Origin: an uncultured Bacilli bacterium
GTDB lineage: Bacteria > Bacillota_I > Bacilli_A > RF39 > UBA660
NCBI GenBank assembly: GCA_947628345.1
Contig: CANQZM010000001.1
Coordinates: forward strand, 2,534-66,533
Reading direction: 5' to 3'
DNA: 64,000 bases
In this document: positions 6,818 to 55,718 of the stretch, in pieces
How positions within the stretch are numbered: the stretch's first letter is position 1
How the letters are laid out: each line of letters opens with the position of its first letter
Notes under the pieces: generated by a model
The model's database searches: none
The model's input: the letters and a program-made list of their open reading frames with translations, nothing else
Told to the model about the DNA's origin: nothing
Program-made: the position numbers and the translations under genes

Positions 6818-7873
6818 TTATTTTTTAATACAAGTATAGCCACCAGATGTCATTTCTGATTCAATTATACCAATATCTTGGTATAAATAAAATTCCTGAA
6901 AATAAGTTCCACCAGCTTCAGTATATGCAGTAGTTGCTTTTTTAACATCAATTTTAGCATAATCCAAAATTTGTTTACTAGTATTAATTCCATCTTTTAA
7001 ACTACAACTGATAGTAACTCCACCTAAATTTTTAGCCCCTTGTTGTAAAGTTAAACATTCTTCATTTAAAGTTTTTAACTCGTCTTTATCCTTCAACTTA
7101 TCACCTGTATGAATTAATGTATAGGTCATTTTAGTTAGTTTACTATCACTAAAATCAAATAAAACATTAGTATTTATATCTAAAGTATCAGTAGTTTTCT
7201 TATTACTACACTCTAAAACACCTGTTGTAATTTGTTGTTGAGTTCGTTTTGTTTGAAAATCACTAACAAAATCAGATATCTGTGGTAAAAAGTAAATCAT
7301 AACCATTAAACCAATAAGTAAGATTGCTGCAAAGACACGTTTAAAAGTAGTAGGTCCATCATTTTTACCACCTTTATTATTTTCAGCATCTACTGATTTC
7401 GCAGGTGGAATGTTTTGCTCTTTATTATTTGGTTGAGATTGTTTATCTTTTAATTGTTGCTCTGCTAACTTTTTCTTAGCTTCTTCTTGTTGTTTTAATA
7501 ACATTTGTTGTTGGGCTTGTTGTTGAGCTAATAATTGTTGCTGCCTTAATTTTTCTTCAGCCTGTTTTTTTTGTGCCAAAATAGCCTCTTGTTGACGTTG
7601 CATACGTAACTGTTCATCTTTCAAAGCTTGTTGCTGTTGTTGTTGCAATTCAAGTTGCTTTTTTCTTTGTAAGTCTTCTTGTTGTTTTTTCAACTCCTCC
7701 ATCATTTGAATTTGTTGTTCCTTGGTTAAATTTTTTATACGCTCCATTTGTTCAGCTAAAGCTTCTTCGTCGCCTTTTACGACTTCTTCAACATCTTCAG
7801 AAGAAATCATGCTTTTATCCTTAGGTTCTTCTACTACAGGTTGTACTTGTTCTTTTTCATTCTTTTTAACCAT
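6818..7873 (-). CDS. Hypothetical membrane-anchored protein with Gln/Lys-rich coiled-coil N-terminal region, one TM helix and a Cys-containing C-terminal domain
   Basis: 351 aa; QQQQQQ/LKQQEE low-complexity segment; TM segment FAAILLIGLMVMIYFL. Confidence 0.5.
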   Translation of the reverse strand: MVKKNEKEQVQPVVEEPKDKSMISSEDVEEVVKGDEEALAEQMERIKNLTKEQQIQMMEELKKQQEDLQRKKQLELQQQQQQALKDEQLRMQRQQEAILAQKKQAEEKLRQQQLLAQQQAQQQMLLKQQEEAKKKLAEQQLKDKQSQPNNKEQNIPPAKSVDAENNKGGKNDGPTTFKRVFAAILLIGLMVMIYFLPQISDFVSDFQTKRTQQQITTGVLECSNKKTTDTLDINTNVLFDFSDSKLTKMTYTLIHTGDKLKDKDELKTLNEECLTLQQGAKNLGGVTISCSLKDGINTSKQILDYAKIDVKKATTAYTEAGGTYFQEFYLYQDIGIIESEMTSGGYTCIKK

Positions 7874-8522: not shown

Positions 8523-9350
8523 TCACTTTCTTTCTATAAACTTTAAATAATTATTATATCTACTTCTAATAATATTATTAGCATTAACTGCTTCTTTTAC
8601 CATACAGTTTTGTTCATTATTATGCATGCAATCTTTATATGCACATTTATATTTTTTAAATTCAACAAAAGCATCCCTAATTTCAGATGAGTTGTAATCA
8701 TTAAATTCTAAGGCGGAAAAACCAGGTGTATCTAATATCTTCTTATTATCTAACTCAAATAATTCCACTACCTTAGTAGTATGTTTACCTCGTCCTAAAG
8801 CTTTAGATATCTCTCCTGTTTTTAACTGCCAATTAGGATTTAATTTGTTAAGCAACGTAGATTTGCCAGCTCCAGTTTGGCCAGTAAAAACACTAGTTTT
8901 ATTTTCTAAAAGTTGATTTATTTTAACTAAATCTGTATTATAAACAACAATGTAGCCTATTTGTTCATAATAAGCTAAAATTGTTTTAATGTTATTTAAT
9001 TCTTTTTCTGATATTAAATCACTTTTAGTAATACAAATAATTGGTTTAACATGATGTAATTCCATTAAAATAATTAATTTGTCTAATAAATTAAGTGATA
9101 AATTAGGTGTAATTAAACTAGTTACCAAAAAAGCTTGATCAATATTAGCAACCCTTGGACGTTCAAAAGAATTTTTTCTAGGTAAAATTTCCTGGATTAC
9201 TTTTTTTTCTTCATCAAAGATAACATAATCCCCTACTCGTGGAGTAATTTGGTCTTTCCTAAATTTACCACGACATTTACAAGCAATAGTTTCTAGACCA
9301 CAACTAACTACATGCAAATCGCTTATTATTTTAATAATTTGACCCTTCAT
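8523..9350 (-). CDS. rsgA: Ribosome small subunit-dependent GTPase A
   Basis: GQTGAGKSTLLNKL P-loop, circularly permuted GTPase motifs, C-terminal zinc Cys cluster. Confidence 0.9.
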   Translation of the reverse strand: MKGQIIKIISDLHVVSCGLETIACKCRGKFRKDQITPRVGDYVIFDEEKKVIQEILPRKNSFERPRVANIDQAFLVTSLITPNLSLNLLDKLIILMELHHVKPIICITKSDLISEKELNNIKTILAYYEQIGYIVVYNTDLVKINQLLENKTSVFTGQTGAGKSTLLNKLNPNWQLKTGEISKALGRGKHTTKVVELFELDNKKILDTPGFSALEFNDYNSSEIRDAFVEFKKYKCAYKDCMHNNEQNCMVKEAVNANNIIRSRYNNYLKFIERK

Positions 9351-9366
9351 TTAACCTCCCTGATTA

Positions 9367-11142
9367 TTAATCACTACTAGAAGAACCCTCAGTATCTGTC
9401 GTTTCATCAGTATTGTTATTATTTGGTTTTTTATTATTATCAGTTGTTTCAGTTGGTTTAGCAGCAACTTCAACAGTTAAAGTGGTTCCTTCAATTATTT
9501 CTGAACCAGCGATACGTGACTGACTAATTATTTTACCTGGTGAATACTGATTAGTTTCAACATAGACTGTCTTTAAAGTTAATTTATATTTAGTACAGAA
9601 AGCTGCAGCATCATCAATACTATATCCTTCAGCAACCATATCTGGGAAAACTTCAACAATATTAGGAATATATAAAGTAATTGAGTCTCCTTCTTTTACT
9701 TCTGATCCTTCAGCCAAAGATTGTCCAATAATTTCTTGTTCATCATAATTACTTCCGGTAACATCTTTTTTCTCGATATTTACTTTTAATTTATATTGAG
9801 TTTGGAGAATAGTTTGAACTTCAATATAATTTTTACCTGTATAATCTTCTAATTTATATGTTTTCTTGCCTGTTGATTTATATAGCGTAACCTTACTACC
9901 TATTTTTACTACCTTACCCTTTTTAGGATTTGTTTTAATAATTCTTCCTTTATCTACAGTATCACTACTTTGAGTTTTAATATCAACATTTACTTCTAAG
10001 CCTAAATCCTCTAGTTTATCAGTAGCCTTACTAACAGTTAATCCTTTAACACTAGGTATAGTAACAGTCTTGGCTTTAGTAAAATGTGGTACTATAAAGA
10101 AAATAGTTAGGAAAATTAAGATAATAGCACCTAAAACACAAGACAAAATGATAATAACTTTTTTACTTTTTTTGTCATCGCTGTCTTCTTCATCTATTTT
10201 TTCAGCAATTTGTTGTTCTTCTGTTTCGTTTTCCAATTCTTCTAATTTTTTAATTCTTTTAGTATTTTCTATTTCATGTTCTGGATATTTATAAACAAGT
10301 GGATCTTCGTTAATTCTTTCATCATCAAGTGCAGTTAATAAATCATCATGCATTTGTTGAACACTATCATAACGATTTTTAGGATTTTTAGCTGTAGCCT
10401 TTAAAATAATATTTTCAATACTTTGTGGAATATTATTATTATCTTCTTTTAAACTAGGAAGTGGTTCTTTCATATGTTTCAAGGCTATTTCAACAGCATT
10501 ATCACCTTTAAATGGTAATTTACCGGTTAATAATTCATAAAAAATAATACCAAGTGAATATATATCACTTTTAGTAGTTGAACCCTTACCACTAGCTTGC
10601 TCCGGTGGTAAATAATGAACTGAACCCATCACTGAATTGGTTTGAGTAAGTTGAGTTGAATTAAGAGCCATAGCAATTCCAAAATCAGTAATTTTAACTT
10701 GACCGTCATCTTGAATCATGATATTTTGTGGTTTCAAATCACGATGGATAATATATGAATCATGGGCATGAGCCATTCCATCAGTAAGTTGTAACATAAT
10801 ATCAATACTTTCAGATAAAGTAAGATTGCCCCTTCTTTTTAGTAATTGTTTTAAAGTTTTTCCTTCAACATATTCCATTACAATATAGTAAAGTCCATCG
10901 TCTTCACCAACATCATACATCTGAACAATATTAGGATGTGAAAGACTAGAAGCTGATAATGCTTCTCGTTGGAAACGTCTTACAAATTTTTCATCGTTAG
11001 ATAAATCCCCTCTTAGTACCTTAATAGCCACATTACGATCTAATATTTCGTCATAACCAAGGTAAACATTAGCCATGCCACCTTCACCAATATTTTTGAT
11101 AACTTCATATCTATCGTTAATTTTTTGCCCCTTTGTTATCAT
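9367..11142 (-). CDS. prkC: Ser/Thr protein kinase PrkC with TM segment and PASTA repeats
   Basis: Hanks kinase motifs (HRDLKPQN, DFGIA), TM helix, three PASTA-like repeats. Confidence 0.9.
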   Translation of the reverse strand: MITKGQKINDRYEVIKNIGEGGMANVYLGYDEILDRNVAIKVLRGDLSNDEKFVRRFQREALSASSLSHPNIVQMYDVGEDDGLYYIVMEYVEGKTLKQLLKRRGNLTLSESIDIMLQLTDGMAHAHDSYIIHRDLKPQNIMIQDDGQVKITDFGIAMALNSTQLTQTNSVMGSVHYLPPEQASGKGSTTKSDIYSLGIIFYELLTGKLPFKGDNAVEIALKHMKEPLPSLKEDNNNIPQSIENIILKATAKNPKNRYDSVQQMHDDLLTALDDERINEDPLVYKYPEHEIENTKRIKKLEELENETEEQQIAEKIDEEDSDDKKSKKVIIILSCVLGAIILIFLTIFFIVPHFTKAKTVTIPSVKGLTVSKATDKLEDLGLEVNVDIKTQSSDTVDKGRIIKTNPKKGKVVKIGSKVTLYKSTGKKTYKLEDYTGKNYIEVQTILQTQYKLKVNIEKKDVTGSNYDEQEIIGQSLAEGSEVKEGDSITLYIPNIVEVFPDMVAEGYSIDDAAAFCTKYKLTLKTVYVETNQYSPGKIISQSRIAGSEIIEGTTLTVEVAAKPTETTDNNKKPNNNNTDETTDTEGSSSSD

Positions 11143-33567: not shown

Positions 33568-35271
33568 TTATAAATAACAATTAACCTGGTAATAAACTGT
33601 ATATCTTTTTGTACCTTTAGTATCATATCCTCTTTTAAACTCATAAGTATTTTTTAAATAAGAACATAATAATGGCTTTTTATAACTTTCTCTGTAAGAT
33701 AAAAAGATATCTAATCTTACTATATTATTATCATTATTAATCTTAGAAACTTTTATATAATTAAGTATCAAACTAATTATTTTATTTATCGTAGATTGAG
33801 AATTAACCTTTAACTTTACAATATCTTCAAATTCTTTAGTTATATTGTCTACTTTGTCTATCTTTTTCTGTGAATTTTTAAGTATATTAATCTCTTTAGT
33901 AAGTTTATTTATGTTATCATTAAACATATTATTTTTTATCATAAACTCATCATTAGATAAACTACCTTGAATATTAAGTTCTAATATTTTATCTTTTTTT
34001 ATATAAAGTTTGTCTAACTCTTTTTTTCTGGTAATAATTTCTTCTTTAAGTTCTTTATCTATTTCTACGCATTTATAACAATTTATAAGAACATCAATAA
34101 TCTTATCAGAATTAATTGATAATTTTTCAATTAAATTTTTAAAAATATAATCTAATTCTGATTCCCTAATATTAGGTGAATCACAAGTAGTTTTACCATT
34201 TTTAAGATACTCTCCACAAACCCATGTTATATCATCTCTACTTTTTCTAAACTTTCTTCTATAAAAGGCTGTATTATGATCTTTACAATAAATTTTAGCA
34301 CTATATAAATATCTATTTGTATAAATCTCTTTATCTTGATTCCGACACTTAAAAGCCTTTTTTCTTGAAATTAACCGTTTATTAGCTCTTTCCCATAAAT
34401 CTTCTGAAACTATTGGAGGAATTTTAACTTTATCTTCTTGGATAATCCAATTATCCTTTTCAAAATATTTTATTTTCTTAGTCATATAATCTACTACTTC
34501 CGACTTTCTTGCACAATAGTAACCCTTATACTTAGGATTTTCAATCATTCTAGAAATTGTTGAAACATACCACTTATGACCTTGATGATTTTTGTTGCTT
34601 TCACTATTTAAAATTTTTACAATTTTAGAAAGAGATAATTCTTCTATGGCATAGTATTCATATATTTGCTTAATTAAACTAGCTTCATCTGGAATAATAT
34701 TTAAAAAACCCGTGTTCTTATCTTTTTTATAACCATAAAGTAAATTATTTCCAAGTATTTCTCTACGTTCTATAGCCCTATTCATTCCAAATCTAACACG
34801 TTCTGATAAACGTCTAATCTCATCTTGAGCCATGGAAGCCATTATAGTAAGTCGAAGTTCAGAATCAGGCATAGCTGTATTTATATTATCATTTACAAAT
34901 AACACAGCTACACCATATGACAAAAGTTCCCTAGTATATTTAATACTATCAAGAGTATTTCTAGAAAATCTAGAAATTTCTTTTGTAATAATCAAATCAA
35001 AATTACCCTGTCTAGCATCTTCAATCATCTTCATAAAATTATCTCTTTTTATATCACTAGTACCAGTTATTCCATCATCTACATATCCTGTTATATAAGT
35101 CCATTGAGGATTTTTCTTTATATACTCCTCAAAATGTTCTACTTGATTTTGTAGAGATTTTTTTTGTTCATGAGAATCAGTTGATACTCTGGCATAATCA
35201 GTAACTTTAAGCTTTATATTAGTAAGTGATATTCCCATATTAAGTTTTTTTCTAACATCATACAAATCCAA
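33568..35271 (-). CDS. Large serine recombinase (resolvase N-terminal domain, recombinase domain, zinc ribbon, coiled coil)
   Basis: YARVSTDSHEQKKSLQNQ catalytic Ser region, recombinase domain, Cys cluster CKDH...C; TTG start preceded by AGGAGG. Confidence 0.8.
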   Translation of the reverse strand: MDLYDVRKKLNMGISLTNIKLKVTDYARVSTDSHEQKKSLQNQVEHFEEYIKKNPQWTYITGYVDDGITGTSDIKRDNFMKMIEDARQGNFDLIITKEISRFSRNTLDSIKYTRELLSYGVAVLFVNDNINTAMPDSELRLTIMASMAQDEIRRLSERVRFGMNRAIERREILGNNLLYGYKKDKNTGFLNIIPDEASLIKQIYEYYAIEELSLSKIVKILNSESNKNHQGHKWYVSTISRMIENPKYKGYYCARKSEVVDYMTKKIKYFEKDNWIIQEDKVKIPPIVSEDLWERANKRLISRKKAFKCRNQDKEIYTNRYLYSAKIYCKDHNTAFYRRKFRKSRDDITWVCGEYLKNGKTTCDSPNIRESELDYIFKNLIEKLSINSDKIIDVLINCYKCVEIDKELKEEIITRKKELDKLYIKKDKILELNIQGSLSNDEFMIKNNMFNDNINKLTKEINILKNSQKKIDKVDNITKEFEDIVKLKVNSQSTINKIISLILNYIKVSKINNDNNIVRLDIFLSYRESYKKPLLCSYLKNTYEFKRGYDTKGTKRYTVYYQVNCYL

Positions 35272-35600: not shown

Positions 35601-36305
35601 TTATCTTGACTTTGCCCCATCGTTACCATATTGTGTACTATATTTATAAGATTTTTCAATAAAGCCAATTAAATTTTCAATTTCTTCACCAAATTGCGGT
35701 CCTTCATAAAAACTTCCGTCTTTATGTTCATTTACTGTTTGTTTTCCTACTTGTGCACTATACAAATCATACATTTCTTTTAACTCATCATATTCAACTG
35801 TATTATCATATTGGAAGTCAGGGTTTGTTCTTCTTTCTTGCCAAATATAAAACGGAATACTTACACTCTTACAAAGAATTTTCTTTTTTATTTCAGACAT
35901 ATCGCCCTTTGGATCATGGTATTCTGCTATTCCAGTACGATAGCCTATTTCTTGCCACATATTGTATAGTTCCGGAATATCTTGTAATACTTTTGCTATT
36001 CCCGAACCTCTTAAATTAATCATTTCCTTTAATTCATCATGTGCTTTCTTTACATGTTCATCAAACTTAAAAATTTCAAAATGTGTATATAAAGAGTTTG
36101 TTCCATTATCATTTTTCTTTTCTGGATAACCATTTTCCTGATAATACTGATTCTTGTATGATAATAACTTTCCTAATTCTACTTCACAATCCATTATTTC
36201 ATAAAAATTAGGATCTGTATTTGGATTACTTCTTATCCAATCATTAATGCCTTTCATTCTTTCTGATAATTTGTCTGCCATAACATCAAGTGTTTGTTTT
36301 TCCAT
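35601..36305 (-). CDS. Hypothetical protein (234 aa)
   Basis: ORF only. Confidence 0.4.
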   Translation of the reverse strand: MEKQTLDVMADKLSERMKGINDWIRSNPNTDPNFYEIMDCEVELGKLLSYKNQYYQENGYPEKKNDNGTNSLYTHFEIFKFDEHVKKAHDELKEMINLRGSGIAKVLQDIPELYNMWQEIGYRTGIAEYHDPKGDMSEIKKKILCKSVSIPFYIWQERRTNPDFQYDNTVEYDELKEMYDLYSAQVGKQTVNEHKDGSFYEGPQFGEEIENLIGFIEKSYKYSTQYGNDGAKSR

Positions 36306-36399
36306 AAAACTTAAAGCCTCCTGTCAATAATATTTAACTGTATTATACTATTTAATTTTTTTTTGTCAAATTTATGCTTTACAAATTGTGATTATCAAG

Positions 36400-36700
36400 C
36401 GAAAATTTCCCAACTATTATTGTGAATAACTTGACCTGTCATATAACTAGAATCATCTTCATAAAATTATCTCTTTTTACATCACTAGTACCAGTTATTC
36501 CATCATCTACATATTCTATTATATAAGTCCATTAGGGATTTTTCTTTATATTCTCCTAATGTTATTGAATTCTTTTAAGATATGTTCTTCTGTATATTTG
36601 AACATTTTATATGATATTTTTTGTTCATCAAATAGTTGTTTGTTTAAAAAAGCTACTTATAATACTATTTCTGTATCATTAAATTTTATATTTTCATCTT
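36400..36700. repeat. Degenerate, internally deleted second copy of the right end of the upstream island: SDR 3' end, recombinase 5' end and recombinase upstream region
   Basis: 36405-36455 matches 32590-32640; 36456-36560 matches 35028-35130; 36562-36690 matches 35287-35415; all near-identical by eye. Confidence 0.6.
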
Positions 36701-36806
36701 TCATAATATTTCTCATCATGAAGTCCCCTTTAATTAACATTATGAAATTTAAAATAAAACAACACTAATAAAAAACAGTACCTACCCTATAAAGTACTGT
36801 TTATTT

Positions 36807-38117
36807 TTATCGTTTTCTTGTATTAGAATCATTAATTAATCTATCTAACTGTTCGTTATTAATATATATTACTCTACCTCCAGCAGGATTAATTATACGA
36901 TTGCCAAACACTACCCATATTGCATCCATTGGTGTATTTGGCATACTAGCTGCTCCATCTGTGAAAATCACTTTGTTTTCTACACGTTTAGAAAATGCAT
37001 TTATTGCGACTTCAAAGTTAGTACCTCCACCACCAGAAAAAGATAAATTATCAATATCTGTTATATTTTTAATTTCTGAAAAACCATAAAATTTTGTATC
37101 AAAACAGCCTACTTTTACTTTAGATACACTTAAAATATTTTTACATTCTCTTAAAAAATTTCTAAGGAGCGTTTTATTAATAGAACCACTAGTATCTAAA
37201 AGTATTTCTGTTTCTGGATTTGGTAATTCTTCTAAATGTGCGGTTAAAACTCCATCTTCTATACTAGCATTTTGGTATGACCAATCAACATCATATTTAA
37301 TAGCCTCCTTCAATAACTTGCGCCAGTCTAAAAGAGGATTTGCTATACCGATATCACTAATAGTTATTTTGTCACTATTTGTTTTATTCCCATAGCCATG
37401 TGATTCATTTACTAAAGATTCTCTAAGTTCTTCTAATCGTTTTTTGTATTCTATTCGATTTTGTTGATATCCTTCCCTTTCTCCTAATTCAGTAAGTTTG
37501 TTAATAATTTCTTTTTTCTGCTTACTTAATGAATCGTTCATAGGTTCATTATTTTGGGAATTTTTATCATAAGCTTTGGACCATAGTTCGTGAGTGTCAT
37601 GCCCAACTTTATTTATCTCTTTTTGTACTTTAGATTGTCCAGTAGAATTTGACTTTGTTTCAGAATTATTTTGATTATTTGATTGTTCTTGATTGTCTGT
37701 TTGATTACTAGTATTTTCTTTTTGTTCTTTCTTTTCTTGTAAAAGTTTTTGATAAAGCTCCTCGACATCATAGTTTCCGGCATAAGGAATATCAATTGCA
37801 CCTTTAATTAGTGGTAATCCATCTTTTTTTAAATTAGCATTTAATACTCCATCAGCAGCCATATTCCATATTTCAGGATCTTTATCTTTGCACCTTTCGA
37901 TATGATTATAACCTATATGCCCAAGTTCATGAGCAAATACAAATATTTGTTCATCAGCAGTAAGATTTTTTAAAAATTCTGGATTATAGTAAATATTATC
38001 ACCATCAGTTGCAGCCGTTTCAATTGATTTATCAGAAATAAAGCAAGTGTTAGCTATGATACTTCCAAATGGTGAATATTTTACTAATAATCTTCGTTTA
38101 ATATAATCTATATCCAT
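36807..38117 (-). CDS. DUF2201-type protein: N-terminal putative zinc metallopeptidase (HExxH) plus C-terminal VWA domain
   Basis: FAHELGHIGYNH HExxH motif; MIDAS-like DTSGS in the C-terminal half; usual partner of AAA_5 MoxR ATPases. Confidence 0.7.
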   Translation of the reverse strand: MDIDYIKRRLLVKYSPFGSIIANTCFISDKSIETAATDGDNIYYNPEFLKNLTADEQIFVFAHELGHIGYNHIERCKDKDPEIWNMAADGVLNANLKKDGLPLIKGAIDIPYAGNYDVEELYQKLLQEKKEQKENTSNQTDNQEQSNNQNNSETKSNSTGQSKVQKEINKVGHDTHELWSKAYDKNSQNNEPMNDSLSKQKKEIINKLTELGEREGYQQNRIEYKKRLEELRESLVNESHGYGNKTNSDKITISDIGIANPLLDWRKLLKEAIKYDVDWSYQNASIEDGVLTAHLEELPNPETEILLDTSGSINKTLLRNFLRECKNILSVSKVKVGCFDTKFYGFSEIKNITDIDNLSFSGGGGTNFEVAINAFSKRVENKVIFTDGAASMPNTPMDAIWVVFGNRIINPAGGRVIYINNEQLDRLINDSNTRKR

Positions 38118-38125
38118 ATCTAATG

Positions 38126-38527
38126 TTAAATTTGTACAAGCAAAGAATATACTTCATCATTTATTTTTCTAGTATTTAAATCTAAGCAAGTAACAATCAC
38201 TAAACAATTTTTAGGTAATTCAAATGTAGCTATTTTCTTATATTTAAGTATTTCAATAAATTTTACTTGTTCATCTTCATCTACTTCATTTATATTATCA
38301 ATAATCAAAATAGTATAACTTTCTTTACTTTTGTCAATTAACTCTTTATACCAAGTTGGAGGACAAAAAGTCGTTTCTTCATAATGTCCATTTAACTCTT
38401 TTTTATCTATGTTAGCTTTTAGTATTATTGAATTTTCAAAAGCCACAGAAGGTACACCTGGTATAAGTAAATTGCAACCACCCATTTCAATATATTTTTC
38501 TAATAAATCCAATCTTTCTTGACTCAT
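38126..38527 (-). CDS. Hypothetical protein (133 aa) between the MoxR-like ATPase and the VWA/peptidase gene
   Basis: ORF only; overlaps the upstream gene by 4 bp (operon). Confidence 0.4.
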   Translation of the reverse strand: MSQERLDLLEKYIEMGGCNLLIPGVPSVAFENSIILKANIDKKELNGHYEETTFCPPTWYKELIDKSKESYTILIIDNINEVDEDEQVKFIEILKYKKIATFELPKNCLVIVTCLDLNTRKINDEVYSLLVQI

Positions 38528-40128
38528 TTTTTTATACCTCCTTGTGATAAATTATCAGCCATTTGTAATTCACTCAAATATTCTAATCTGCTTTCATCAC
38601 CATGAGTCCACATAGATTCAAAGGCTGCTTTTGGTTCTGCTCCGACCCGTTTCATAAAATCCCGTACTACTGAAAAGTTTTTATCATCAACTGAAGATAA
38701 TCCAACAGCTGTTGCAAATTTTTGAGCTGTATCCATTTCAAAATCTTCATCTGAATAATTATGGTTTAGCACATCTTCAACACTTATTACGTATTGACTT
38801 GTAAACCAAATAAAATCAGATGTTAAATCCTCTCCAATTAAAGCCCGTAACATTTCTGGTTGTTTGGTTTTATATAGTATTTTAGAAGCCAATTCCCATT
38901 TACGGGGATCTGCATTAGGTTTTTTACCAGTAAATGGTGTTCTTAATACATCTTCTCCACTATATGATTTATAAGCTATATATGCATAAATAGATGGATG
39001 AATTTTAGCATTTGGTTTTTCTACATCATAATTTAATCTTTCATAATTTTCTTCTGGAGTAGTCGCCCATTTTAACCAACTATTAACAGTTGTATTAATA
39101 TAAACATGAGCAAATCTATTATATAAAGGTTCTGCCAATTGATTGGCTGCTAAAGAATCCTCTAGATCATTTCCAGCCGCTACTATTCTAGCATTAGGTG
39201 GTAGTTTCCATATACCATTAATTTCTTTATCTAAAACTATATTAAAGGCCATTCCTTGAATTGAAGGAAGTGCGTTGGTAAGTTCGTCAAAAAATACAAT
39301 GTGAATTTTATCCGGTTCTTTTTCACATTTTTCTTTTATTTTAGAATACCAAGTAGGTGGTATATCAATCATTTCCCCTGTTGTAGCATTATATACACTT
39401 TTGCCATTTAAACTATCTGGAGTAGCATTTCTCATATATATAATTTCGCATTCTGGATCAAATTGTTTTACTCTTGCTGACTTACCATCACCAGATTTAC
39501 CATGCAAAAATATAGGAACAGAACTTTCTAAAGCACCTCTAATAATCTCTTCTTCTGTTACACGACTAAAATCAAAGCCATAAGGATTCCTTTGCCTTTT
39601 TGATTTAGTATTATTTAGGTTGTCTAATTGATCTAAATTCCTACTGGTAGGAATTATTTCCTTTGAAAAAAAAGTATCCGTATATTTATTTATATCTGTT
39701 TTACTAAAATCACCACGATAATTATTATCATTTTGAAATTGAACACCTGCAAAAAGAATATATTTAGCAAGAGCTACATCTTTTACTTTATCAACTAACC
39801 ATATAATAGGTTCAACCTTAATCCAATATGGTTGACCTACAATTATTGTTGTACCATTAGATAGTTGGTCTCCTGCACTATTAGTATCTGCAGTAAAACG
39901 AATATACTTACTACCATTATATACGTATTCTAAAAATTCACGTTTTTTAAATTGTTCATTATAACTATCATATGCTACTGAATCAGTTGTATATTTTTTT
40001 CCTGTGATTTTTGAATCTAAAATACCATTATTATAAGCTTGTTCTAATATATCTTGCTTAGATTGTTCTTCAACCCACTGAGGGAATTCTCCATATTGTA
40101 CTTCAAGAATTCCTTGGCGACCTCTCAC
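38524..40128 (-). CDS. MoxR-like AAA+ ATPase (AAA_5) with about 200-aa unknown N-terminal domain; no own ATG start for about 230 codons; in frame with the DGR VR ORF upstream
   Basis: Walker A FLHGKSGDGKSARV, Walker B IVFFDEL, sensor AAGN. The ORF is open in frame upstream to the TAA at 40207-40209 within the VR. Only a GTG without RBS at 40128. Confidence 0.7.
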   Translation of the reverse strand: MRGRQGILEVQYGEFPQWVEEQSKQDILEQAYNNGILDSKITGKKYTTDSVAYDSYNEQFKKREFLEYVYNGSKYIRFTADTNSAGDQLSNGTTIIVGQPYWIKVEPIIWLVDKVKDVALAKYILFAGVQFQNDNNYRGDFSKTDINKYTDTFFSKEIIPTSRNLDQLDNLNNTKSKRQRNPYGFDFSRVTEEEIIRGALESSVPIFLHGKSGDGKSARVKQFDPECEIIYMRNATPDSLNGKSVYNATTGEMIDIPPTWYSKIKEKCEKEPDKIHIVFFDELTNALPSIQGMAFNIVLDKEINGIWKLPPNARIVAAGNDLEDSLAANQLAEPLYNRFAHVYINTTVNSWLKWATTPEENYERLNYDVEKPNAKIHPSIYAYIAYKSYSGEDVLRTPFTGKKPNADPRKWELASKILYKTKQPEMLRALIGEDLTSDFIWFTSQYVISVEDVLNHNYSDEDFEMDTAQKFATAVGLSSVDDKNFSVVRDFMKRVGAEPKAAFESMWTHGDESRLEYLSELQMADNLSQGGIKK

Positions 40129-40169
40129 TTCGTTCGAGGCGATTTTAGAGATTAAAGAGTAAGGTATAG

Positions 40170-40243
40170 CTGGGCGAGCTCCAACATTACGTCCATTAAC
40201 ATCGCTTTAGTCCCTATCACCATTATCATCAACCGCGCGCGCG
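40170..40243 (-). other. DGR variable repeat (VR), 74 bp
   Basis: Identical to 41747..41820 except 8 positions, all of which are adenines in the other copy on the minus (sense) strand (7 A to G, 1 A to T). Differences fall on positions 1 and 2 of AAY codons in one frame. Confidence 0.85.
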
Positions 40244-40455
40244 TATCCGCTATCCGGTGTTTTCGTCCACCAAGCTCCTGTTCTGTCTTTTAAATTATTT
40301 CCTTCATTAGTATAACATGTTGATGATACATACCCACCAAGTAATATAGAAAAATCTGTTATAGCACATTTAGTTCCATATTTTTTAAACATGTCTAATC
40401 GATTTTCACTAAATATTTGATCATTCTCTAAGAATGTAAAGTTACTCATATACAT
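40207..40455 (-). CDS. Small ORF (about 80 aa) whose 3' end carries the first half of the VR; ends at a TAA inside the VR; likely the N-terminal part of a DGR target fused or read through into the MoxR-like ATPase
   Basis: MSNFTF...LLGGYVSST...GAWWTKTPDSGYARAVDDNGDRD*; RBS GGTGA before ATG 40455. Same frame as 38524..40128, separated only by a TAA that is also present in the TR. Confidence 0.5.
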   Translation of the reverse strand: MYMSNFTFLENDQIFSENRLDMFKKYGTKCAITDFSILLGGYVSSTCYTNEGNNLKDRTGAWWTKTPDSGYARAVDDNGDRD

Positions 40456-40499
40456 CACCAATTATATAATAACATACTTTTAATTTGTATAAATAAATT

Positions 40500-41567
40500 T
40501 TAAATTTCCTTTACAAAAATTATGTCAAGTTTAAACTTGATACTTTCATGAGTTATTTTTATGTGATTATAAAAAGCATTTTTTCTTTGAAATATATATT
40601 CTTCATCAACTATTCCTTTATTATATAACTTATTTAATGTTTTTATATGTTTTTTCATTCGTTGTTTTGATGATGCTCGCAATTTTACTATGATTTTCCC
40701 AGTATTACTTAAAATATGCCTATAGCCCAAAAAATCTATACCATTTTTTAGTTCACCTATTTGTGTTTTTTCATTAAGTTTCAAATCTAAAAATTGCTGA
40801 CAAAATGATTCTATTTCTTGCTTACATTTAACTAAATAACCCTTATCTCTATGAATTAAAATCATGTCATCCATATAACGTACATAATATTTTATTTTTA
40901 ATTGCTCCTTTATAAAATGATCTAACTTATTTAAATAGAATAAAGCAAACCATTGACTCGATTGATTACCAAGTGGTAAACCTCTAGTTGCATTATCTGG
41001 CTGTTCTTTAATTATTTTTCTGATTATCCACATTTCATCATCAGAAAAATTTATCTTTTCTAACATTCTTAGTAATATATCATGATTTATACTAGGAAAA
41101 TATTTTCTAATATCACACTTTAAAAAATATATTTTATTGTTTTGATTCTTAAAATATTCTGTTCTTAAAAATTTATGTAGTCTTTTTATTGCAAAAGTTG
41201 TACCTTTTTCTTTTCGGCAAGCACAGTTATCATATATTAATCTTTTATCTATTTTAGATTTTAAACACACATCACAAAAGCATCTAATTACCACTCTATC
41301 TTTAAAAGGTAAGGCTTCTATTAATCGTTGTTTTGGCTCATAAATGTAAAATTTTTTATATTTGCCCAATTTATATTTTTTAGTAGTTAATTCTTTAATT
41401 AAAATATTTAAATTAATTGCTAAATTGGACTCAAATCTAATGACTTCACCCTTGTGTTGTTTAGACTTTCTACAATTTTTATATGCATCATATAAATTTT
41501 CAAAAGTAAAAATTTCATCTAAAGTCATACTTACCTCCAAAAAATAAACACTCCTTATAACGCCCAA
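40500..41567 (-). CDS. Diversity-generating retroelement reverse transcriptase
   Basis: RT motifs: FYIYEPKQRLIEALPFKDRVV, FLKCDIRKYFPSI, DGR-specific motif 4 LGNQSSQ ((I/L/V)GxxxSQ), catalytic YVRYMDD, thumb FLGYR. Flanked by TR and VR. Confidence 0.85.
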   Translation of the reverse strand: MGVIRSVYFLEVSMTLDEIFTFENLYDAYKNCRKSKQHKGEVIRFESNLAINLNILIKELTTKKYKLGKYKKFYIYEPKQRLIEALPFKDRVVIRCFCDVCLKSKIDKRLIYDNCACRKEKGTTFAIKRLHKFLRTEYFKNQNNKIYFLKCDIRKYFPSINHDILLRMLEKINFSDDEMWIIRKIIKEQPDNATRGLPLGNQSSQWFALFYLNKLDHFIKEQLKIKYYVRYMDDMILIHRDKGYLVKCKQEIESFCQQFLDLKLNEKTQIGELKNGIDFLGYRHILSNTGKIIVKLRASSKQRMKKHIKTLNKLYNKGIVDEEYIFQRKNAFYNHIKITHESIKFKLDIIFVKEI

Positions 41568-41746
41568 AGAGTTATTAAACTCATTGTTTGTGTGAGTGTT
41601 TTAATTCTTCCACCGCACTAAGTATAAACTTTTAGCGGTTAGAAAAGAAGAAAATTCCTTCACCTTACAATACTGATATATCTTATATAAAATATATTTC
41701 TCTGATCTGTTTTCTGAATCTATAAAAAATTCCTTCAAAAGTGAAT

Positions 41747-41820
41747 CTGGGCGAGCTCCAACATTACGTTTATTAACATTGTTTTAGTTCCTATTACCAT
41801 TATTATCTACCGCGCGCGCG
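41747..41820 (-). other. DGR template repeat (TR), 74 bp, about 180 bp upstream of the RT gene
   Basis: See VR: carries A at all 8 mismatched positions; AAY-rich in the VR coding frame; begins with (CG)5 and ends with GGAGCTCGCCCAG in sense orientation. Confidence 0.85.
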
Positions 41821-41895
41821 ACCAAAAGCCACGAAAAAACACAACGCTCTAAAAATAAATTTTCTTCTTAATTAAAGGCCTTTCAACCTAAAATC

Positions 41896-42480
41896 CTAAT
41901 TCTTTTTTTTCCATCTATTATCATCACTTTTTTTCCAGGCAACAATTAAGTTAATTACTTCTGCTAATTGCATTGATATCTGCTTATATTGTTTTAATAA
42001 AATGCACCCACAACTTTGCGCTAACATTGCTATATAGCCCAATAATTTTAATTTAACAATTGCCTCTTTTTGATAACTTTCTCTTTTTAATTTATTTGCA
42101 GAAGAATCCATTCTAATAAAATTTGTTTCTAGTAAATTTTCGATTGTATCTAAACAGTAGTTTTGCATTCTATTAACAAATACTCCTCTAAATTTTTTAG
42201 GTGATTTTTCTGTTACTGTAATTACATAGGAGCATAATTTTTTAGCTACTGTAATAACAACCAATTCATTGGCATTATAAGGTATTTTCTCGATTGTTTT
42301 TAAATCTTGATCATCTGCCTCTACTCTTTCTTTTACCCTTTTTTCATAAAACTTTGAATTTTCCGCCATAGCTATTCCCTTTTTTATTGCTATAACATCA
42401 TCTATACTATTTGCTTTTTTAGTAACAACATTAATTTCTTTAGGAATTTTTAAATTCTTTGCTCTACTAACTTGTTCCAT
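41896..42480 (-). CDS. avd: Avd-like accessory variability determinant (four-helix-bundle, 23S rRNA IVS protein family) with N-terminal extension
   Basis: Position immediately upstream of TR-RT (canonical avd-TR-RT order). C-terminal ~120 aa resemble Avd helices (IPKKFRG..., LKLLGYIAMLA...). Confidence 0.55.
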   Translation of the reverse strand: MEQVSRAKNLKIPKEINVVTKKANSIDDVIAIKKGIAMAENSKFYEKRVKERVEADDQDLKTIEKIPYNANELVVITVAKKLCSYVITVTEKSPKKFRGVFVNRMQNYCLDTIENLLETNFIRMDSSANKLKRESYQKEAIVKLKLLGYIAMLAQSCGCILLKQYKQISMQLAEVINLIVAWKKSDDNRWKKKN

Positions 42481-42602
42481 GATACCACAGCCTTATTTAT
42501 AATTAATATTAACAAGCAAGTCACTATCATTATAACAGAAAAAATACAACTTTATTTAAAGTTTACATATTTTATAATTATTAGAAAGACATCTTTGTAT
42601 TT

Positions 42603-43672
42603 AAAAACAAGCTTAACGGCTTGTTTCCTAAATTGAAATTTCAACCGCACCACTAGGTGCGGCTTTTTGATACAATAAAGGAGCCAATCCCGGCAAGGAG
42701 GCTCCTATATGAATTATAAACAATTAACTAAAGAAAAGAAAGCACAAATTGATATTTTACTTGAACAAGGACTATCTATGAGAAAAACAGCTGAAATATT
42801 AGGAATATGTCATTCTACTATCTCTAGATATAAAGCTAATATTTATAAGAAAAGAAAAATAGATATTCATGAAAAGTATGATATTTTTATGCATTATCTA
42901 TATACACACTATGATTATAAAACTTGTTCTATTGAAGTTTGTGTTCATAAATTTAAAAAGACTCATTTAAATGCTAAAAGTCCATCTGTTAAACAAGTAT
43001 ATAATTGGATAAATGAAGGTAAAATTAAACTTAATAAAAAAGATTTATGTTATAAAAAACGAAGAGGAAAGAAAACATCAATGATGAATCATACAAAATG
43101 GAACATAGATCACAAAACTGTACTTCCAATAAGCTTAAGACCTAAATATATCAATAAAAGAGATGAATTAGGACATTTAGAAATAGATTCTATTTTAGGT
43201 AAAAGAAATGAATATGATTCAGTTATTTCTATAGTAGATAGATGTTCAAGAAAAGTATGGTTAATAAAGTCTGAATACAAAAATGAATACTATACAGATA
43301 AAATTATATATGAATATATAATAAGAAACGAAATAAAAGTAAAATCCATTACTGTAGATAATGGATTAGAGTTTCAAGCTTTAGGATTAACAGCTAAAAA
43401 GCTTGGAGTAAAACTATATAAATGTGATCCATACTGTTCCTTTCAAAGAGGAACCAATGAAAGGACCAATGCTTTAGTAAGAAGATTTATTCCAAAAGGA
43501 AATTCTATGAAGAATGTAACACAGTATTATCTAGATAATATTAGTTTTGAAATAAACAGTATGCCACGTAAATTATTTGACTATAAATGTGCTTATGATA
43601 TAGAATTAAAATATAAATAAAATGGTGCGGTTGAAATTACAATAAAGAAAAACAAGCTTAACGGCTTGTTTT
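42603..43672 (+). mobile_element. IS30-family insertion sequence (about 1.07 kb). Ends carry inverted repeats ...AATTTCAACCGCACC/GGTGCGGTTGAAATT... and identical 24-bp hairpin elements AAAAACAAGCTTAACGGCTTGTTT
   Basis: Single DDE transposase ORF with flanking repeats read directly; exact termini uncertain. Confidence 0.6.
42709..43620 (+). CDS. IS30-family transposase
   Basis: N-terminal HTH (LSMRKTAEILGICHSTISRY), DDE region, 303 aa. Confidence 0.75.
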   Translation: MNYKQLTKEKKAQIDILLEQGLSMRKTAEILGICHSTISRYKANIYKKRKIDIHEKYDIFMHYLYTHYDYKTCSIEVCVHKFKKTHLNAKSPSVKQVYNWINEGKIKLNKKDLCYKKRRGKKTSMMNHTKWNIDHKTVLPISLRPKYINKRDELGHLEIDSILGKRNEYDSVISIVDRCSRKVWLIKSEYKNEYYTDKIIYEYIIRNEIKVKSITVDNGLEFQALGLTAKKLGVKLYKCDPYCSFQRGTNERTNALVRRFIPKGNSMKNVTQYYLDNISFEINSMPRKLFDYKCAYDIELKYK

Positions 43673-43677
43673 ATAAA

Positions 43678-44433
43678 CTATTTTATAATAGATTCTAATG
43701 CCAGAGTAATCATATCATTTAGGCTTTTTTCTCGTTCTTCGCCACTTAAAACTTTTTTACTATATTTTGAATCTACTGCAGTCAAAATACAAGCTGCTTC
43801 TTTTTCAAAATGATTTGCTATATGAAATAAACCAAATGCTTCCATTTCCTCTGCTACTACATCTAAGTCTTTAGGGATTCTATTTAATACTCTATCATAG
43901 TCAATATATGGACCAAATACATCCATAGTAGTTATATCTCCAACATGAAGTTTATAATTTAATTCTTCTGCTGTTTCCATAATAGTATTATTTAAAGAAT
44001 TTGAAGGATAAGTAACATGCCCTTCATAATTATCAAATGTATAAGCAAAATTTGACTCTGAATAAGATCTATTTGCTAAAATAAGATCAGGCACATTTAT
44101 AGTTGGTTTTAATGCTCCACATGTACCTATTCTGATAATTTTTTCAACGTCAAAGTAATGAAATAACTCAAAAGCATAAATACCCATACTTGGCATTCCC
44201 ATTCCTGATGCCATAACAGTTATTCTAACCCCTTTATAAAATCCTGTATAACCTAACATATTTCTCAAATTGGCAACATTCTTATTATCTATTGTAAAAT
44301 TTTCTACTATTGCATCATCTAAGAAAGTTTCTGCAATATATTTAGCTCTTAATGGATCTCCTGGCATTAATACAAGTGGAGCTATATCACCTTCTTTTGC
44401 ATTAATATGGATTGGTTCTTCTCCTATAAACAT
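43678..44433 (-). CDS. deoD: Purine nucleoside phosphorylase, DeoD-type
   Basis: Near-identical N-terminal segment to E. coli DeoD (VLMPGDPLRAKYIAETFLDDA...GMGMPS). Confidence 0.85.
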   Translation of the reverse strand: MFIGEEPIHINAKEGDIAPLVLMPGDPLRAKYIAETFLDDAIVENFTIDNKNVANLRNMLGYTGFYKGVRITVMASGMGMPSMGIYAFELFHYFDVEKIIRIGTCGALKPTINVPDLILANRSYSESNFAYTFDNYEGHVTYPSNSLNNTIMETAEELNYKLHVGDITTMDVFGPYIDYDRVLNRIPKDLDVVAEEMEAFGLFHIANHFEKEAACILTAVDSKYSKKVLSGEEREKSLNDMITLALESIIK

Positions 44434-44557
44434 AATTATCGCCTCCTAATTATAATTTTAACAAACTTTTTTAAGTTATAATATATTTTTAATTGATTAT
44501 ATACATTATTAGACACTTTTTTAGTAATATTAGAAACTTCTTATTGTTGCATTAAGA

Positions 44558-44962
44558 GAACCTAATGCTACAGAAGTAGAACAACAAGGATATGGGCATG
44601 TCGTAGCTAGTGTTGGTTCTTTAGGTGGTGTAGTTCCATATACATCTTATTCTGCAAGAATCAGCTATTTAAATAATCATAAAGAATTAATCTCTAATTT
44701 CGATAAAGCTATTCAAAAAGGATTAGATTATGTTAAAAATCATTCAGATAAAGAAGTAGCAAAAACTATTCTAAAACAATTCCCAGATACATCTTTAAAT
44801 GATTTAACTAGTGCAGTTAAAAGATATAGAGAAAATGATACTTGGCCTGATACAACAAAATTCAGTGAAGAATCATTTAATCATTTACAAGATATAATGA
44901 TTGATAGTGGTGACTTAACAAAAAAAGTTGATTATAGTAAGTTGATCTATAATGAAGAATAA
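44558..44962 (+). pseudogene. 3' portion of the interrupted NMT1/SsuA-type ABC substrate-binding protein gene (continues ...PNATEVEQQGYGHVVASVG...)
   Basis: Open frame begins right after an in-frame TAG at 44531. Stop overlaps the ATG of the downstream ABC ATPase (ATGAAGAATAA). Confidence 0.7.
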
Positions 44963-45369
44963 AATTTTAAGTATTCAGCATTTGAAAAAAAGCTATCATG
45001 ATAAGAAAAGTGAAATTAAAGCTTTAGAAGATATAACATTTGATGTTTATGATAAAGAATTTATTTCAATAGTAGGACCAAGTGGATGTGGAAAGTCAAC
45101 AATACTTTCCATTCTTTCTATGTTAGAAAAAAAATCTGGGGGAATGTTCCATTTAAAAGATAATATTACTATCGGTTACATGTTACAACAAGATTCCCTA
45201 TTCTTTTGGAGAACTATTTTAGATAATTGTTTAATTGGTTTAGAAGTAACTAATAAGTTAAATGAAGAAAGTAAACAATATGTATTAGATTTACTAAAAA
45301 CTTATGGATTATATGAATTTAAAGATAAATATCCATCTAGTTTATCTGGAGGTATGAGACAAAGAGTTG
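44952..45369 (+). pseudogene. 5' part of ABC transporter ATP-binding protein (Walker A through LSGGMRQRV), truncated by a 10.4 kb insertion
   Basis: GPSGCGKST Walker A, Q-loop, ends LSGGMRQRVE*; Walker B and H-loop continue at 55771. Confidence 0.8.
45360..45369. repeat. Left copy of 10-bp direct repeat CAAAGAGTTG flanking the 10.4 kb island
   Basis: Identical 10-mer at 55761..55770. Joining the flanks reconstitutes ...GGMRQRVALIRTLAIKPD... Confidence 0.7.
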
Positions 45370-54107: not shown

Positions 54108-55718
54108 GTGATAATAATGAATGAAATGAAAAAGAAATTATTAAGAGTTGGTATTTATTTAAGACTATCTGATGAAGATAATGATAAACAAAATAAATTG
54201 GATAACAGTGAATCAATTAAAAATCAAAGAAATCTACTTCTAGGAGAAATAGAAAAAAGATCTGAATTTCTTCTAGTAGATGAATATTGTGATGAAGATT
54301 TATCAGGCGCAGGAACTTATAGACCAGAATTTGAACGACTTATAAGAGATTGTGAAAATGGTAAAATAGATGTAATTTTATGTAAGAGTCAATCAAGATT
54401 TTCAAGAGATATGGAAATTATAGAAAAGTATTTACATAATAAATTTATCGAATGGGGAGTAAGATTTATAAGTTTTTCTGATAATGCTGATACAGCTAAT
54501 ATTGGTAATAAAAAATCAAGACAAATTAATGGCCTAGTAAATGAATGGTATTTAGAAGATGTATCTAACAATATTCGTAGTGCTTTTAAAACCAAAATGG
54601 AACACGGAGAATTTATTTCTCCCTTTGCTTCATTTGGCTACGAGGTACCAAATTTTGATAATAATAAATTAGTAGTTGATTCTGTAGCTGCAGAAATAGT
54701 AAAAGAGATTTTCAATCTATATTTAATGGGAATGGGTTTTACAGCTATAGCAAAGTATTTAAATAATAAAAATATACCTTCTCCATCTCTATATAAATAT
54801 CAAAAAGGTATTAAATTAAATATTATTAGTAATAGACCTAGAGAAGAAATAAAATGGAGTGCAAATGCTATTAAAACAATATTAACTAATGAAGTTTATT
54901 TAGGACATTTAATCCAAGGAAAAAGAACTACTGTTAGTTATAAAAATCATAAGATTAAAAGCAAAGATAAAAGTGAATGGATAAGAATAGAAAACACGCA
55001 TGAAGCAATCATAGATGAAGATACATTTAATAAAGTTCAAATAGCTATAAAAGAAAGAACTAAACCTATAAAACAAACAGGTCTTGCTCATATTTTTTCT
55101 GGAAAAGTATTTTGTCTTGAATGTAATCAATATATGAGAAAAAAGAATTCTTCAAAACACGAATATTTACAATGCTCAAATAATCGTGATGGTTATAATG
55201 ACTGTATTAATAAACAATCAATTAGATATGATAAATTAGAAAATATAATTTTAAATGAAATCAATAAAAAAATTTGTAAATATTATAATGAAGAAAAATT
55301 AGAAGATTTAGATAAACTAAATAAAAATAATAAATTCACTGATAAAATAAAAGCCTTAAAAAAACAAAGAGAAGAAGTCAGTAATAGCATTGCAAAAATA
55401 AAAAAATATCTAAAAAAACTTTATGAAGATAAAGTAAATGGTATTATTACAGTTGAACAATTCAAAGACTTAATAAAGGATTACAATAAAGATAATGATA
55501 TTTATAAAGATAATCTTAAATCTATTGAAAGTGAAATTTCTTATTATATAAAAAAAAAAGAAAATGTAAAAAAGACTAAGAAAAAATTTAGTAAATATAA
55601 AAATCTTAATAGTTTAAATAAAGTTATTGTAGATGAATTTATTGATAAAATCTATATTGGAAAGTTAAATAAAAAATTAAATAGTAGAGATATTCAAATA
55701 AAATGGAATTTTAAATAA
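54108..55718 (+). CDS. Large serine recombinase (integrase of the NAD island)
   Basis: IYLRLSDEDN...SQSRFSRD resolvase domain, recombinase domain, Cys-rich zinc ribbon (CLECNQY...CSNNRDGYNDC), C-terminal coiled coil. Confidence 0.85.
   Translation: MIIMNEMKKKLLRVGIYLRLSDEDNDKQNKLDNSESIKNQRNLLLGEIEKRSEFLLVDEYCDEDLSGAGTYRPEFERLIRDCENGKIDVILCKSQSRFSRDMEIIEKYLHNKFIEWGVRFISFSDNADTANIGNKKSRQINGLVNEWYLEDVSNNIRSAFKTKMEHGEFISPFASFGYEVPNFDNNKLVVDSVAAEIVKEIFNLYLMGMGFTAIAKYLNNKNIPSPSLYKYQKGIKLNIISNRPREEIKWSANAIKTILTNEVYLGHLIQGKRTTVSYKNHKIKSKDKSEWIRIENTHEAIIDEDTFNKVQIAIKERTKPIKQTGLAHIFSGKVFCLECNQYMRKKNSSKHEYLQCSNNRDGYNDCINKQSIRYDKLENIILNEINKKICKYYNEEKLEDLDKLNKNNKFTDKIKALKKQREEVSNSIAKIKKYLKKLYEDKVNGIITVEQFKDLIKDYNKDNDIYKDNLKSIESEISYYIKKKENVKKTKKKFSKYKNLNSLNKVIVDEFIDKIYIGKLNKKLNSRDIQIKWNFK

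Follow-up and report, generated by a model that had tools for sequence, protein, structure and literature searches.

The window considered here, a stretch of 64,000 nucleotides (nt) from an uncultured low-G+C gut bacterium of the Bacilli, carries on its minus strand a diversity-generating retroelement (DGR) whose template repeat (TR) holds an in-frame TAA stop codon, and the variable repeat (VR) in the adjoining target gene holds the same TAA (window coordinates are used throughout). The explanation that can be advanced with good confidence is that this is an active chromosomal DGR whose template stop makes either ON alleles of the target, each of them a new variant, or OFF alleles, and that the window presents the OFF state. 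This reading is carried by the anatomy of the element, by adenine-only natural variation, by ON and OFF alleles lying on near-identical backgrounds, and by the recurrence of template stops in the family. The element itself is a genuine DGR of known kind; what is unusual are the stops in the template, an N-terminal VR in a non-lectin-like module on a MoxR-like ATPase, and a repeat of just 74 nt accompanied by a structured spacer.

The two repeats were compared by exact ungapped alignment, which agrees with the original prediction in coordinates, length and number of differences. They differ at 8 of 74 positions (repeat positions 13, 17, 26, 32, 39, 41, 50 and 51), and every mismatch is an A in the upstream copy, the TR, replaced in the downstream copy by G in seven cases and by T in one; with 26 adenines in 74 positions, the chance of eight out of eight falling on A is ~1e-4 (hypergeometric). 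As had been proposed, the homology begins exactly at (CG)5 and its last part is the invariant GTTGGAGCTCGCCCAG, a candidate core of the initiation of mutagenic homing (IMH) site, beyond which the flanks diverge into ATTCACTTT after the TR and CTATACCTT after the VR. Past repeat position 57, in the 3' direction, all adenines are unchanged in eight VR alleles of the same species, and, judging from the aligned loci, a constant G+C-rich end (16 nt in the window) with differing flanks is the pattern across the family. The G+C content of the window is 26.4%, a setting in which both repeat ends, (CG)5 and GGAGCTCGCCCAG, are extreme G+C islands.

Between the repeats lies a reverse transcriptase (RT) gene with both of the motifs previously reported, LGNQSSQ and YVRYMDD, and its relationship is of the DGR type rather than that of group II or retron enzymes. 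Its closest solved relative in the PDB is chain 8ub7_A (E 1e-39, residues 3-295), which we take to be the RT of the Bordetella phage BPP-1 DGR, the entry being titled only 'Reverse transcriptase'; in the same comparison, group II RTs (E 9e-11) and retron RTs (E 9e-10) are far behind. The NCBIfam models for group II, Drt3a and retron RTs all score far under their cut-offs, and PADLOC matched generic RT models alone, with nothing for the target, for the 133-amino-acid (aa) open reading frame (ORF) overlapping its end, or for the Avd-like protein. The exact RT protein is found in three other assemblies. The most probable start codon is ATG 41528, which follows a GGAGG and is also the start called in three other assemblies (product of 342 aa), and the spacer between TR and RT is therefore 218 nt; of the predicted series avd, TR, 180-bp spacer and RT, the order holds and the length does not. 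The Avd-like ORF upstream of the TR has the position and orientation expected for avd, and the same gene is called in same-species contigs. The placing given to it by the original prediction thus stands, and its kinship is weakly indicated by the available models, NCBIfam DivGenRetAVD (E 4.2e-8, 33 bits for a cut-off of 80) and Pfam bAvd (E 1.1e-5, 26 bits for a cut-off of 40, residues 75-185); a PDB sequence search with it gave no match. With the Avd-like ORF taken as avd, all parts of a complete DGR, as it had been called, are present in the order avd-TR-spacer-RT-VR, with the target downstream of the RT.

The AAY frame of the repeats had been described as free of stops, and this claim fails, as repeat codon 12 is TAA in TR and VR alike. 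In this frame the TR reads ARAVDNNGNRN*NNVNKRNVGARP and the VR reads ARAVDDNGDRD*SDVNGRNVGARP, with the asterisk marking the stop. The codons targeted by DGRs have been stated to preclude nonsense codons (PMC7159879, PMC10907252), a design from which this template departs with its in-frame TAA plus an AAA codon. In the list of ORFs, the region past the RT appears as an 84-aa ORF that ends at the VR TAA and a 534-aa ORF from GTG 40128, which are in one frame with this TAA as the sole stop between them. Translated from 40449, the target gene is truncated by the TAA, its codon 81, at residue 80, and a search with the read-through protein returned 2561 relatives, including intact proteins of 640/641 aa that are ~98% identical and come from the same species.

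These relatives make it possible to see both states of the gene within one species. Clustering at 90% identity places 15 sequences of this gene with the intact homologue: five are full-length, six have 80-82 aa and two 533-534 aa, and the remaining two are fragments (68 and 262 aa). DNA was compared for eight of the 15. The TR keeps its TAA in all seven further same-species assemblies in which a TR is present, hence in 8/8 with the window counted, and is identical to that of the window in six of the seven, differing in L244 by G>A at position 31. At codon 81 of the target, by comparison, the window and L251 are OFF with TAA, L247 is OFF with TAG and L248/L249 are OFF with TGA, while L244 (TTC), L245 and L246 (both TAT), L250 (TCT) and P0001 (a Cys codon) are ON. 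Because the template codon is TAA with two mutable adenines, each homing event is expected to give either a stop (TAA, TAG or TGA) or one of Phe, Leu, Ser, Tyr, Cys and Trp, and both outcomes, stop and sense, occur in natural alleles. With codon 81 excluded, 72 substitutions at TR adenines (28 to G, 25 to T and 19 to C) were counted over the eight independent VR alleles of the species, as opposed to a few at other sites, notably position 31, so the heterogeneity at TR-adenine sites that the original prediction had called for is seen among assembled alleles. The theoretical peptide diversity of the ON class is ~4e12.

The backgrounds of these alleles are close to identical. Between the window and L246, which is ON, and between the window and L248, which is OFF with TGA, there is at most one difference in the 1656 nt downstream of the VR, and the VRs of all three differ at many positions despite this; rewriting of the VR, including the change between ON and OFF, is thus recent relative to the divergence of the strains. 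In all OFF alleles the 551-552 codons past the stop are open, and downstream of the VR the target has a pN/pS of ~0.2 for the more diverged pairs.

Several particulars of the same-species loci may be recorded beside these results. Position 31 (VR 40213, TR 41790) is G in the TR of most assemblies (AGG), and several VRs have A or C there; the cases are L244, L245, L247, L250 and L251, the TR of L244 itself having A. Either the TR is polymorphic within the species (AGA/AGG) or a non-adenine site is occasionally altered. In L245 (2422-3153, sample ERR14656726), the RT is called at 243 aa as opposed to 342 and the target is full-length and ON with Tyr at codon 81; it could be a strain whose DGR has been disabled, with the target frozen ON. 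Three independent assemblies of the window's strain (L161, L162 and L163) end inside the VR just past the TAA (window 40200-40205), as is expected if reads are heterogeneous there or if the TR/VR repeat confuses the assembly graph.

Stops in the template are not confined to this species. The RT was used to scan genome, viral and metagenome collections, and the counts that follow are among the matches listed, which include many loci at 50-79% identity, mostly in metagenome-assembled genomes of uncultured gut Bacilli and Clostridia; the full family runs to hundreds of loci. The layout TR-RT-VR with the target downstream was found at at least 47 loci with 34 distinct TRs, and an in-frame stop is present in 12 distinct TRs by ungapped alignment and in two more (L014 and L017) by eye; as the TRs of L035 and L039 are nearly the same, the stop-bearing distinct TRs come to ~13/34. 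The stops are located at three codon positions at least (repeat codons 6, 12, 14 and others), TAA, TGA and TAG are all used, and relatives have TGG, TAC, TAT, AAC, TGA or TAA at the position of the window's stop. A control set of 70 further DGR loci, taken from these scans and having their VR upstream of the RT, showed no in-frame stop in any TR and none in any VR (0/70). Among the assembled VRs of the family, nine loci have stops and six more are frameshifted by indels within the VR, and the loci L003, L004 and L005 share one TR and have three different VRs.

A second common route of interruption is seen in L014, L017, L040, L053 and L060, in which 1-nt indels of the VR relative to the TR shift the target frame. 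In L009 (TR 44-121, VR 1625-1702) the template TAA has become CCG, and in L023 (TR 7706-7788, VR 9285-9367) it has become AGA, the T being altered as well in both; either selection to escape the stop or misincorporation beside adenines could account for these non-adenine changes at the stop codon.

Whether VRs that retain the stop are lost can be judged against a neutral expectation, which was built from the frequency of adenine mutation in the allele concerned and the observed share of A>G. For the 8 TR stop codons of the window species, 4.6 retained stops are expected and 4 are observed; for the 13 of the rest of the family, 6.5 are expected and 7 observed; and for the total of 21, 11.1 are expected and 11 observed. 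Stop-bearing VRs are therefore not visibly purged.

The rival that deserves most attention is decay of an ordinary DGR, in which a TGG (Trp) codon conserved in the TR became TAA by G>A change, the defect passed to the target by homing, and the target is becoming a pseudogene whose stops have no role. Since many TRs of the family have TGG at this codon, the path TGG>TGA>TAA is plausible, and the neutral rate of stop retention, the RT called as truncated in L245 and the frameshifts in several family VRs also agree with it. What speaks against decay is that stops recur in ~13/34 distinct TRs, at several positions, as TAA, TGA and TAG and with RTs 53-79% identical to that of the window, compared with none in the control; that the TAA persists in every same-species TR while ON alleles with Phe, Tyr, Ser and Cys coexist; and that RT and avd are intact, with the 552 codons past the stop open at a pN/pS of ~0.2. 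Decay is accordingly held to be unlikely. Stops that are not purged, together with conserved genes behind them, fit frequent and reversible switching better than decay, with or without a benefit.

A further step would be to regard the template stops as a selected feature of the lineage, that is, as a phase-variation switch laid over hypervariation that keeps a large fraction of a potentially costly or self-reactive sensor-ATPase-VWA system OFF. This is a tentative proposal, to which we give somewhat less than even credence, and with similar reserve it may be suggested that such a switch would have been overlooked since DGR surveys discard targets with premature stops. Several observations weigh against the interpretation of an active, switching DGR or against its selected form. 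The allele data are assemblies, i.e., consensus sequences, several of low coverage, and not read-level or single-cell data. Retention of stops at the neutral rate fits a tolerated by-product as well as a useful switch, and the RT called as truncated in one same-species strain suggests that decay also happens. The Avd assignment consists of hidden Markov model scores below curated cut-offs. No hairpin or cruciform of the BPP-1 type was found just 3' of the VR, the DNA fold of 40185..40095 having -6.9 kcal/mol (z = 0.35 relative to shuffles), and a promoter scan gave 43 matches where 48 are expected from shuffles in this A+T-rich DNA, with none singled out.

It is highly improbable that the stop is read through or recoded, by an altered code, a suppressor tRNA or programmed read-through, so that the gene is always expressed. 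Genetic code 4, in which TGA means Trp, is used by some lineages related to the Bacilli, and TGA does replace the TGG of relatives in L001 and L052; against this, a single species has TAA, TAG and TGA at this one codon and four different amino acids among its ON alleles, the other genes of the window are long ORFs under table 11, the target uses TGG for Trp, and no tRNA gene lies in the window, in which a search of all 64 kb found no tRNA or tmRNA genes. The explanation by the genetic code was rejected on account of the three different stop codons at codon 81.

There is likewise very little to be said for a split gene, in which an 80-aa peptide and the 534-aa ATPase from GTG 40128 would function separately in stop-bearing strains. 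Both ORFs are annotated by gene callers in several assemblies, but the stop cuts the variable module ahead of a conserved GARPA(L/I)PYS segment, coding sequence is conserved over the 26 codons from the stop to the GTG, GTG 40128 lacks a preceding Shine-Dalgarno-like sequence, and the point of splitting coincides exactly with a mutable codon of the TR. An assembly artefact, in which a short-read assembler would have put TR-derived reads, and hence the TAA, into a sense VR, finds some support in the exactly alike ends of TR and VR and in the three assemblies of the window's strain that break inside the VR, yet it is extremely improbable and was rejected on the ground that bases specific to the VR stand 3 nt ahead of the TAA and 2 nt past it (positions 32 and 39), so that any read or k-mer over the codon carries them, with the same TAA-bearing VR allele present in four assemblies and the TAG and TGA of other OFF alleles absent from the TR.

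For the active, switching DGR favored here, the following course of events may be envisaged. The avd gene, TR, spacer and RT gene would presumably be transcribed as one RNA, of which the structured spacer, paired with the 3' end of the TR, would hold the TR RNA and position the RT-Avd complex. This complex would copy the 74-nt TR into cDNA with misreading of adenines, as membership in the DGR family and the spectrum of alleles suggest, and the cDNA would replace the VR in the adjoining downstream gene, bounded on one side by the adenine-free (CG)5 and on the other by the constant G+C-rich 3' end, as is suggested by where variation stops. As TR, RT, avd and the ends of the VR are intact, the OFF state should be reversible. 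In the ON state, the N-terminal module would presumably, by analogy, bind a ligand and control the ATPase together with its von Willebrand factor A (VWA)/metallopeptidase partner.

In an alignment of TR plus spacer from 15 family loci (77% identity per column), RNAalifold predicts eight spacer helices with compensatory changes at 17 pairs; the predicted partners can pair in 96.1% of cells, compared with ~50% when partners are slid by 1-3 columns, and the observed covariation was reached by none of 500 shuffles. The spacer RNA is thus, on the evidence of this alignment, conserved and supported by covariation. A single-sequence fold of TR plus spacer was no better than shuffles (z = -0.17), so the structure is revealed solely by comparative analysis, and an Rfam scan of 36000-45000 with E up to 1 matched no family. 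In helices H1/H2, the 3' end of the TR and its flank pair with a strand ~80 nt from the TR end; their proposed role is that of the BPP-1 spacer RNA, by which RT-Avd is positioned where the TR ends.

The target gene encodes an N-terminal variable module followed by an ATPase half, and the latter appears to be MoxR-like, i.e., of the MoxR/AAA_5 type of AAA+ ATPases. The match to Pfam AAA_5 is weak (E 0.0036, below the cut-off); the AlphaFold model of the full-length protein (pLDDT 78) resembles AAA+ domains of MCM, NorQ and dynein, and the top Foldseek matches of the modeled C-terminal half include NorQ (9qhg_E and 9qhd_F). With tblastn against cultured phages and plasmids, it was over the C-terminal half alone that the target matched genes, those on plasmids being annotated as 'MoxR family ATPase' (22-26% identity); the variable module had no annotated relative in this search. 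A C-type-lectin fold was not detected in the variable module, and the VR lies near the N-terminus of the target, not in a C-terminal lectin or Ig-like domain. Hydrophobic segments are absent from the target (maximum KD19 1.21), which is therefore probably a soluble, cytoplasmic protein.

Two further genes follow before a terminator-like hairpin. The 133-aa ORF resembles target residues 335-428 by BLASTP (E 3e-4) and is kept at the same position in family loci; oddly for a separate gene, its homologues figure as members of the 90% protein cluster of the target. Pfam has no match for this ORF. The VWA-like protein matches Pfam DUF2201_N (metallopeptidase, E 1.9e-30) and DUF2201 (VWA-like, E 2.2e-12), and an NCBIfam scan gave nothing for the target, the 133-aa ORF or this protein. 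By analogy with known systems, the N-terminal module and the ATPase-VWA effector pair suggest a diversified sensor coupled to an effector system. The coordinates of all features are collected in the following table.

Features of the DGR and its target operon, in coordinates of the 64,000-nt window
Feature	Position	Strand	Basis or remark
Template repeat (TR)	41820..41747	minus	74 nt, 26 adenines; in-frame TAA at 41786..41784
Variable repeat (VR)	40243..40170	minus	codons 68-92 of the target gene; exact alignment
In-frame TAA in VR, carried over from the TR without mutation (target OFF)	40209..40207	minus	ORF and alignment
Invariant G+C-rich 3' end of the repeat, GTTGGAGCTCGCCCAG, candidate IMH core	40170..40185	minus	flanks diverge beyond it
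Structured spacer RNA from TR to RT	41529..41750	minus	15-locus alignment, RNAalifold
Helices H1/H2 (predicted)	41750..41738 with 41666..41657	minus	3' end of TR and flank CC...TTCACTTT pair with AAGGTGAA..GG
Further spacer hairpins (predicted)	41732-41716, 41697-41676, 41646-41606, 41601-41546	minus	RNAalifold
avd-like accessory gene	41896..42480	minus	194 aa; N-terminal extension of ~70 aa and Avd-like C-terminal 110 aa
DGR reverse transcriptase	40500..41528	minus	342 aa; motifs LGNQSSQ and YVRYMDD; Pfam RVT_1 E 7e-18
Target gene	38524..40449	minus	641 codons, TAA at codon 81; N-terminal variable module ~1-260 and MoxR-like AAA+ ATPase ~290-640
133-aa ORF, truncated paralogue of the target AAA core	38126..38527	minus	Walker B to sensor-1, no Walker A; start overlaps target stop
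Metallopeptidase-like and VWA-like protein, presumed partner of the AAA+ ATPase	36807..38117	minus	436 aa; Pfam; HELGH motif
Terminator-like hairpin and T run	36773..36802	minus	ends the string of genes from avd to the VWA gene

The neighborhood consists of chromosomal housekeeping genes (NAD synthesis, purine nucleoside phosphorylase, ABC transporter) and two serine recombinases, with no phage. The large serine recombinases, at 33568-35271 (minus) and 54108-55718 (plus), have Resolvase, Recombinase and Zn_ribbon_recom domains and stand on either side of the region, one of them ~1.5 kb beyond the point at which the DGR-target operon ends. An element of the IS30 family occupies 42603-43677, separating avd from the purine nucleoside phosphorylase gene, with a transposase ORF at 42709..43620 (plus; NCBIfam transpos_IS30, E 2e-59) and flanks formed by a 30-nt direct repeat (42603-42632 and 43648-43677, 93% identical) with a terminator hairpin. 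Its insertion directly upstream of the DGR is recent, because the same-species contigs L244 and L245 are without it.

As a whole, these results bear on how DGRs are understood and curated. A lineage of gut-bacterial DGRs breaks the stated AAY rule that mutagenesis never yields nonsense codons. If switching is reversible and useful, DGRs can serve as ON/OFF switches besides being diversifiers, and curation that drops targets containing stops then loses genuine, active elements. In the survey of Wu et al. (2018), candidates with premature stops were excluded (PMC5758913); the large DGR survey of Roux et al. (2021) makes no mention of stop codons, and neither template-encoded stops nor ON/OFF alleles driven by a DGR were found described in a literature search of an incomplete library. 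The covariation-backed spacer, in turn, is a ready model for the RNA elements needed by DGR RTs, and the idea of a DGR-tuned intracellular sensor extends from multicellular cyanobacteria and proteobacteria to small-genome gut Bacilli.

Among known systems, the DGR of Bordetella phage BPP-1 (avd-TR-brt with target mtd, the prototype of 'architecture B') is similar in that its RT belongs to the DGR clade and is directly preceded by the TR, that an Avd-like gene is present, that TR and VR differ in an adenine-specific manner and share a constant G+C-rich 3' end with diverging flanks, and that a spacer RNA lies beside the TR. Unlike it, the element of the window is chromosomal rather than phage-borne, has its target downstream of the RT, its VR near the N-terminus instead of the C-terminus, a repeat of just 74 nt and an in-frame TR stop, and is without a post-VR hairpin or a detectable lectin fold. 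Few DGRs with N-terminal VRs were recorded by Wu et al. (2018), who pointed out that an N-terminal or internal VR forces the IMH inside the coding sequence (PMC5758913). The same survey described DGRs of the candidate phyla radiation (CPR) with unclassified VRs, among which the UVR4 targets match the Midasin AAA domain; in the combination of an AAA_5/Midasin-type ATPase with an unclassified VR fold these resemble the window target, a likeness of description and not of sequence, and in category g of the survey the P-loop is upstream of the VR, whereas in the window target it is downstream (PMC5758913).

With classical phase variation, as brought about by slipped-strand repeats or invertible promoters, the proposed switch would share stochastic, heritable and presumably reversible ON/OFF control of a single locus; it differs in that the switch is mutagenic retrohoming of a template stop, by which each ON event is also a new variant. 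Pairs of MoxR AAA+ and VWA proteins of the NorQ/NorD type are comparable insofar as the modeled C-terminal half of the target superposes on NorQ and a VWA-like protein adjoins it, but there is no family membership at the sequence level, the partner has a DUF2201_N domain, and the ATPase has a diversified N-terminal module of 260 residues. The MoxR-vWA (VMAP/iSTAND) ternary conflict systems of cyanobacteria and gammaproteobacteria are alike in linking a DGR-diversified module to an AAA+ ATPase (MoxR-class in those systems, MoxR-like in the window) and a VWA protein (Kaur et al. 2020, PMC7159879; Dore et al. 2024, PMC10907252), and also in an apparently cytoplasmic target with a plausible role as sensor. 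In the operon of the window, VMAP, EAD, trypsin, caspase and TIR components were not found by Pfam, NCBIfam and PADLOC scans, no VMAP-specific profiles being used. The variable FGS/CLec domain of the conflict systems stands at the C-terminus, as a rule on the vWA component, in a 'strict architectural syntax' (PMC7159879, PMC10907252); in the window, by contrast, the variable module is N-terminal, of unrecognised fold and on the ATPase itself, and the host is a small-genome gut member of the Bacilli instead of a multicellular organism.

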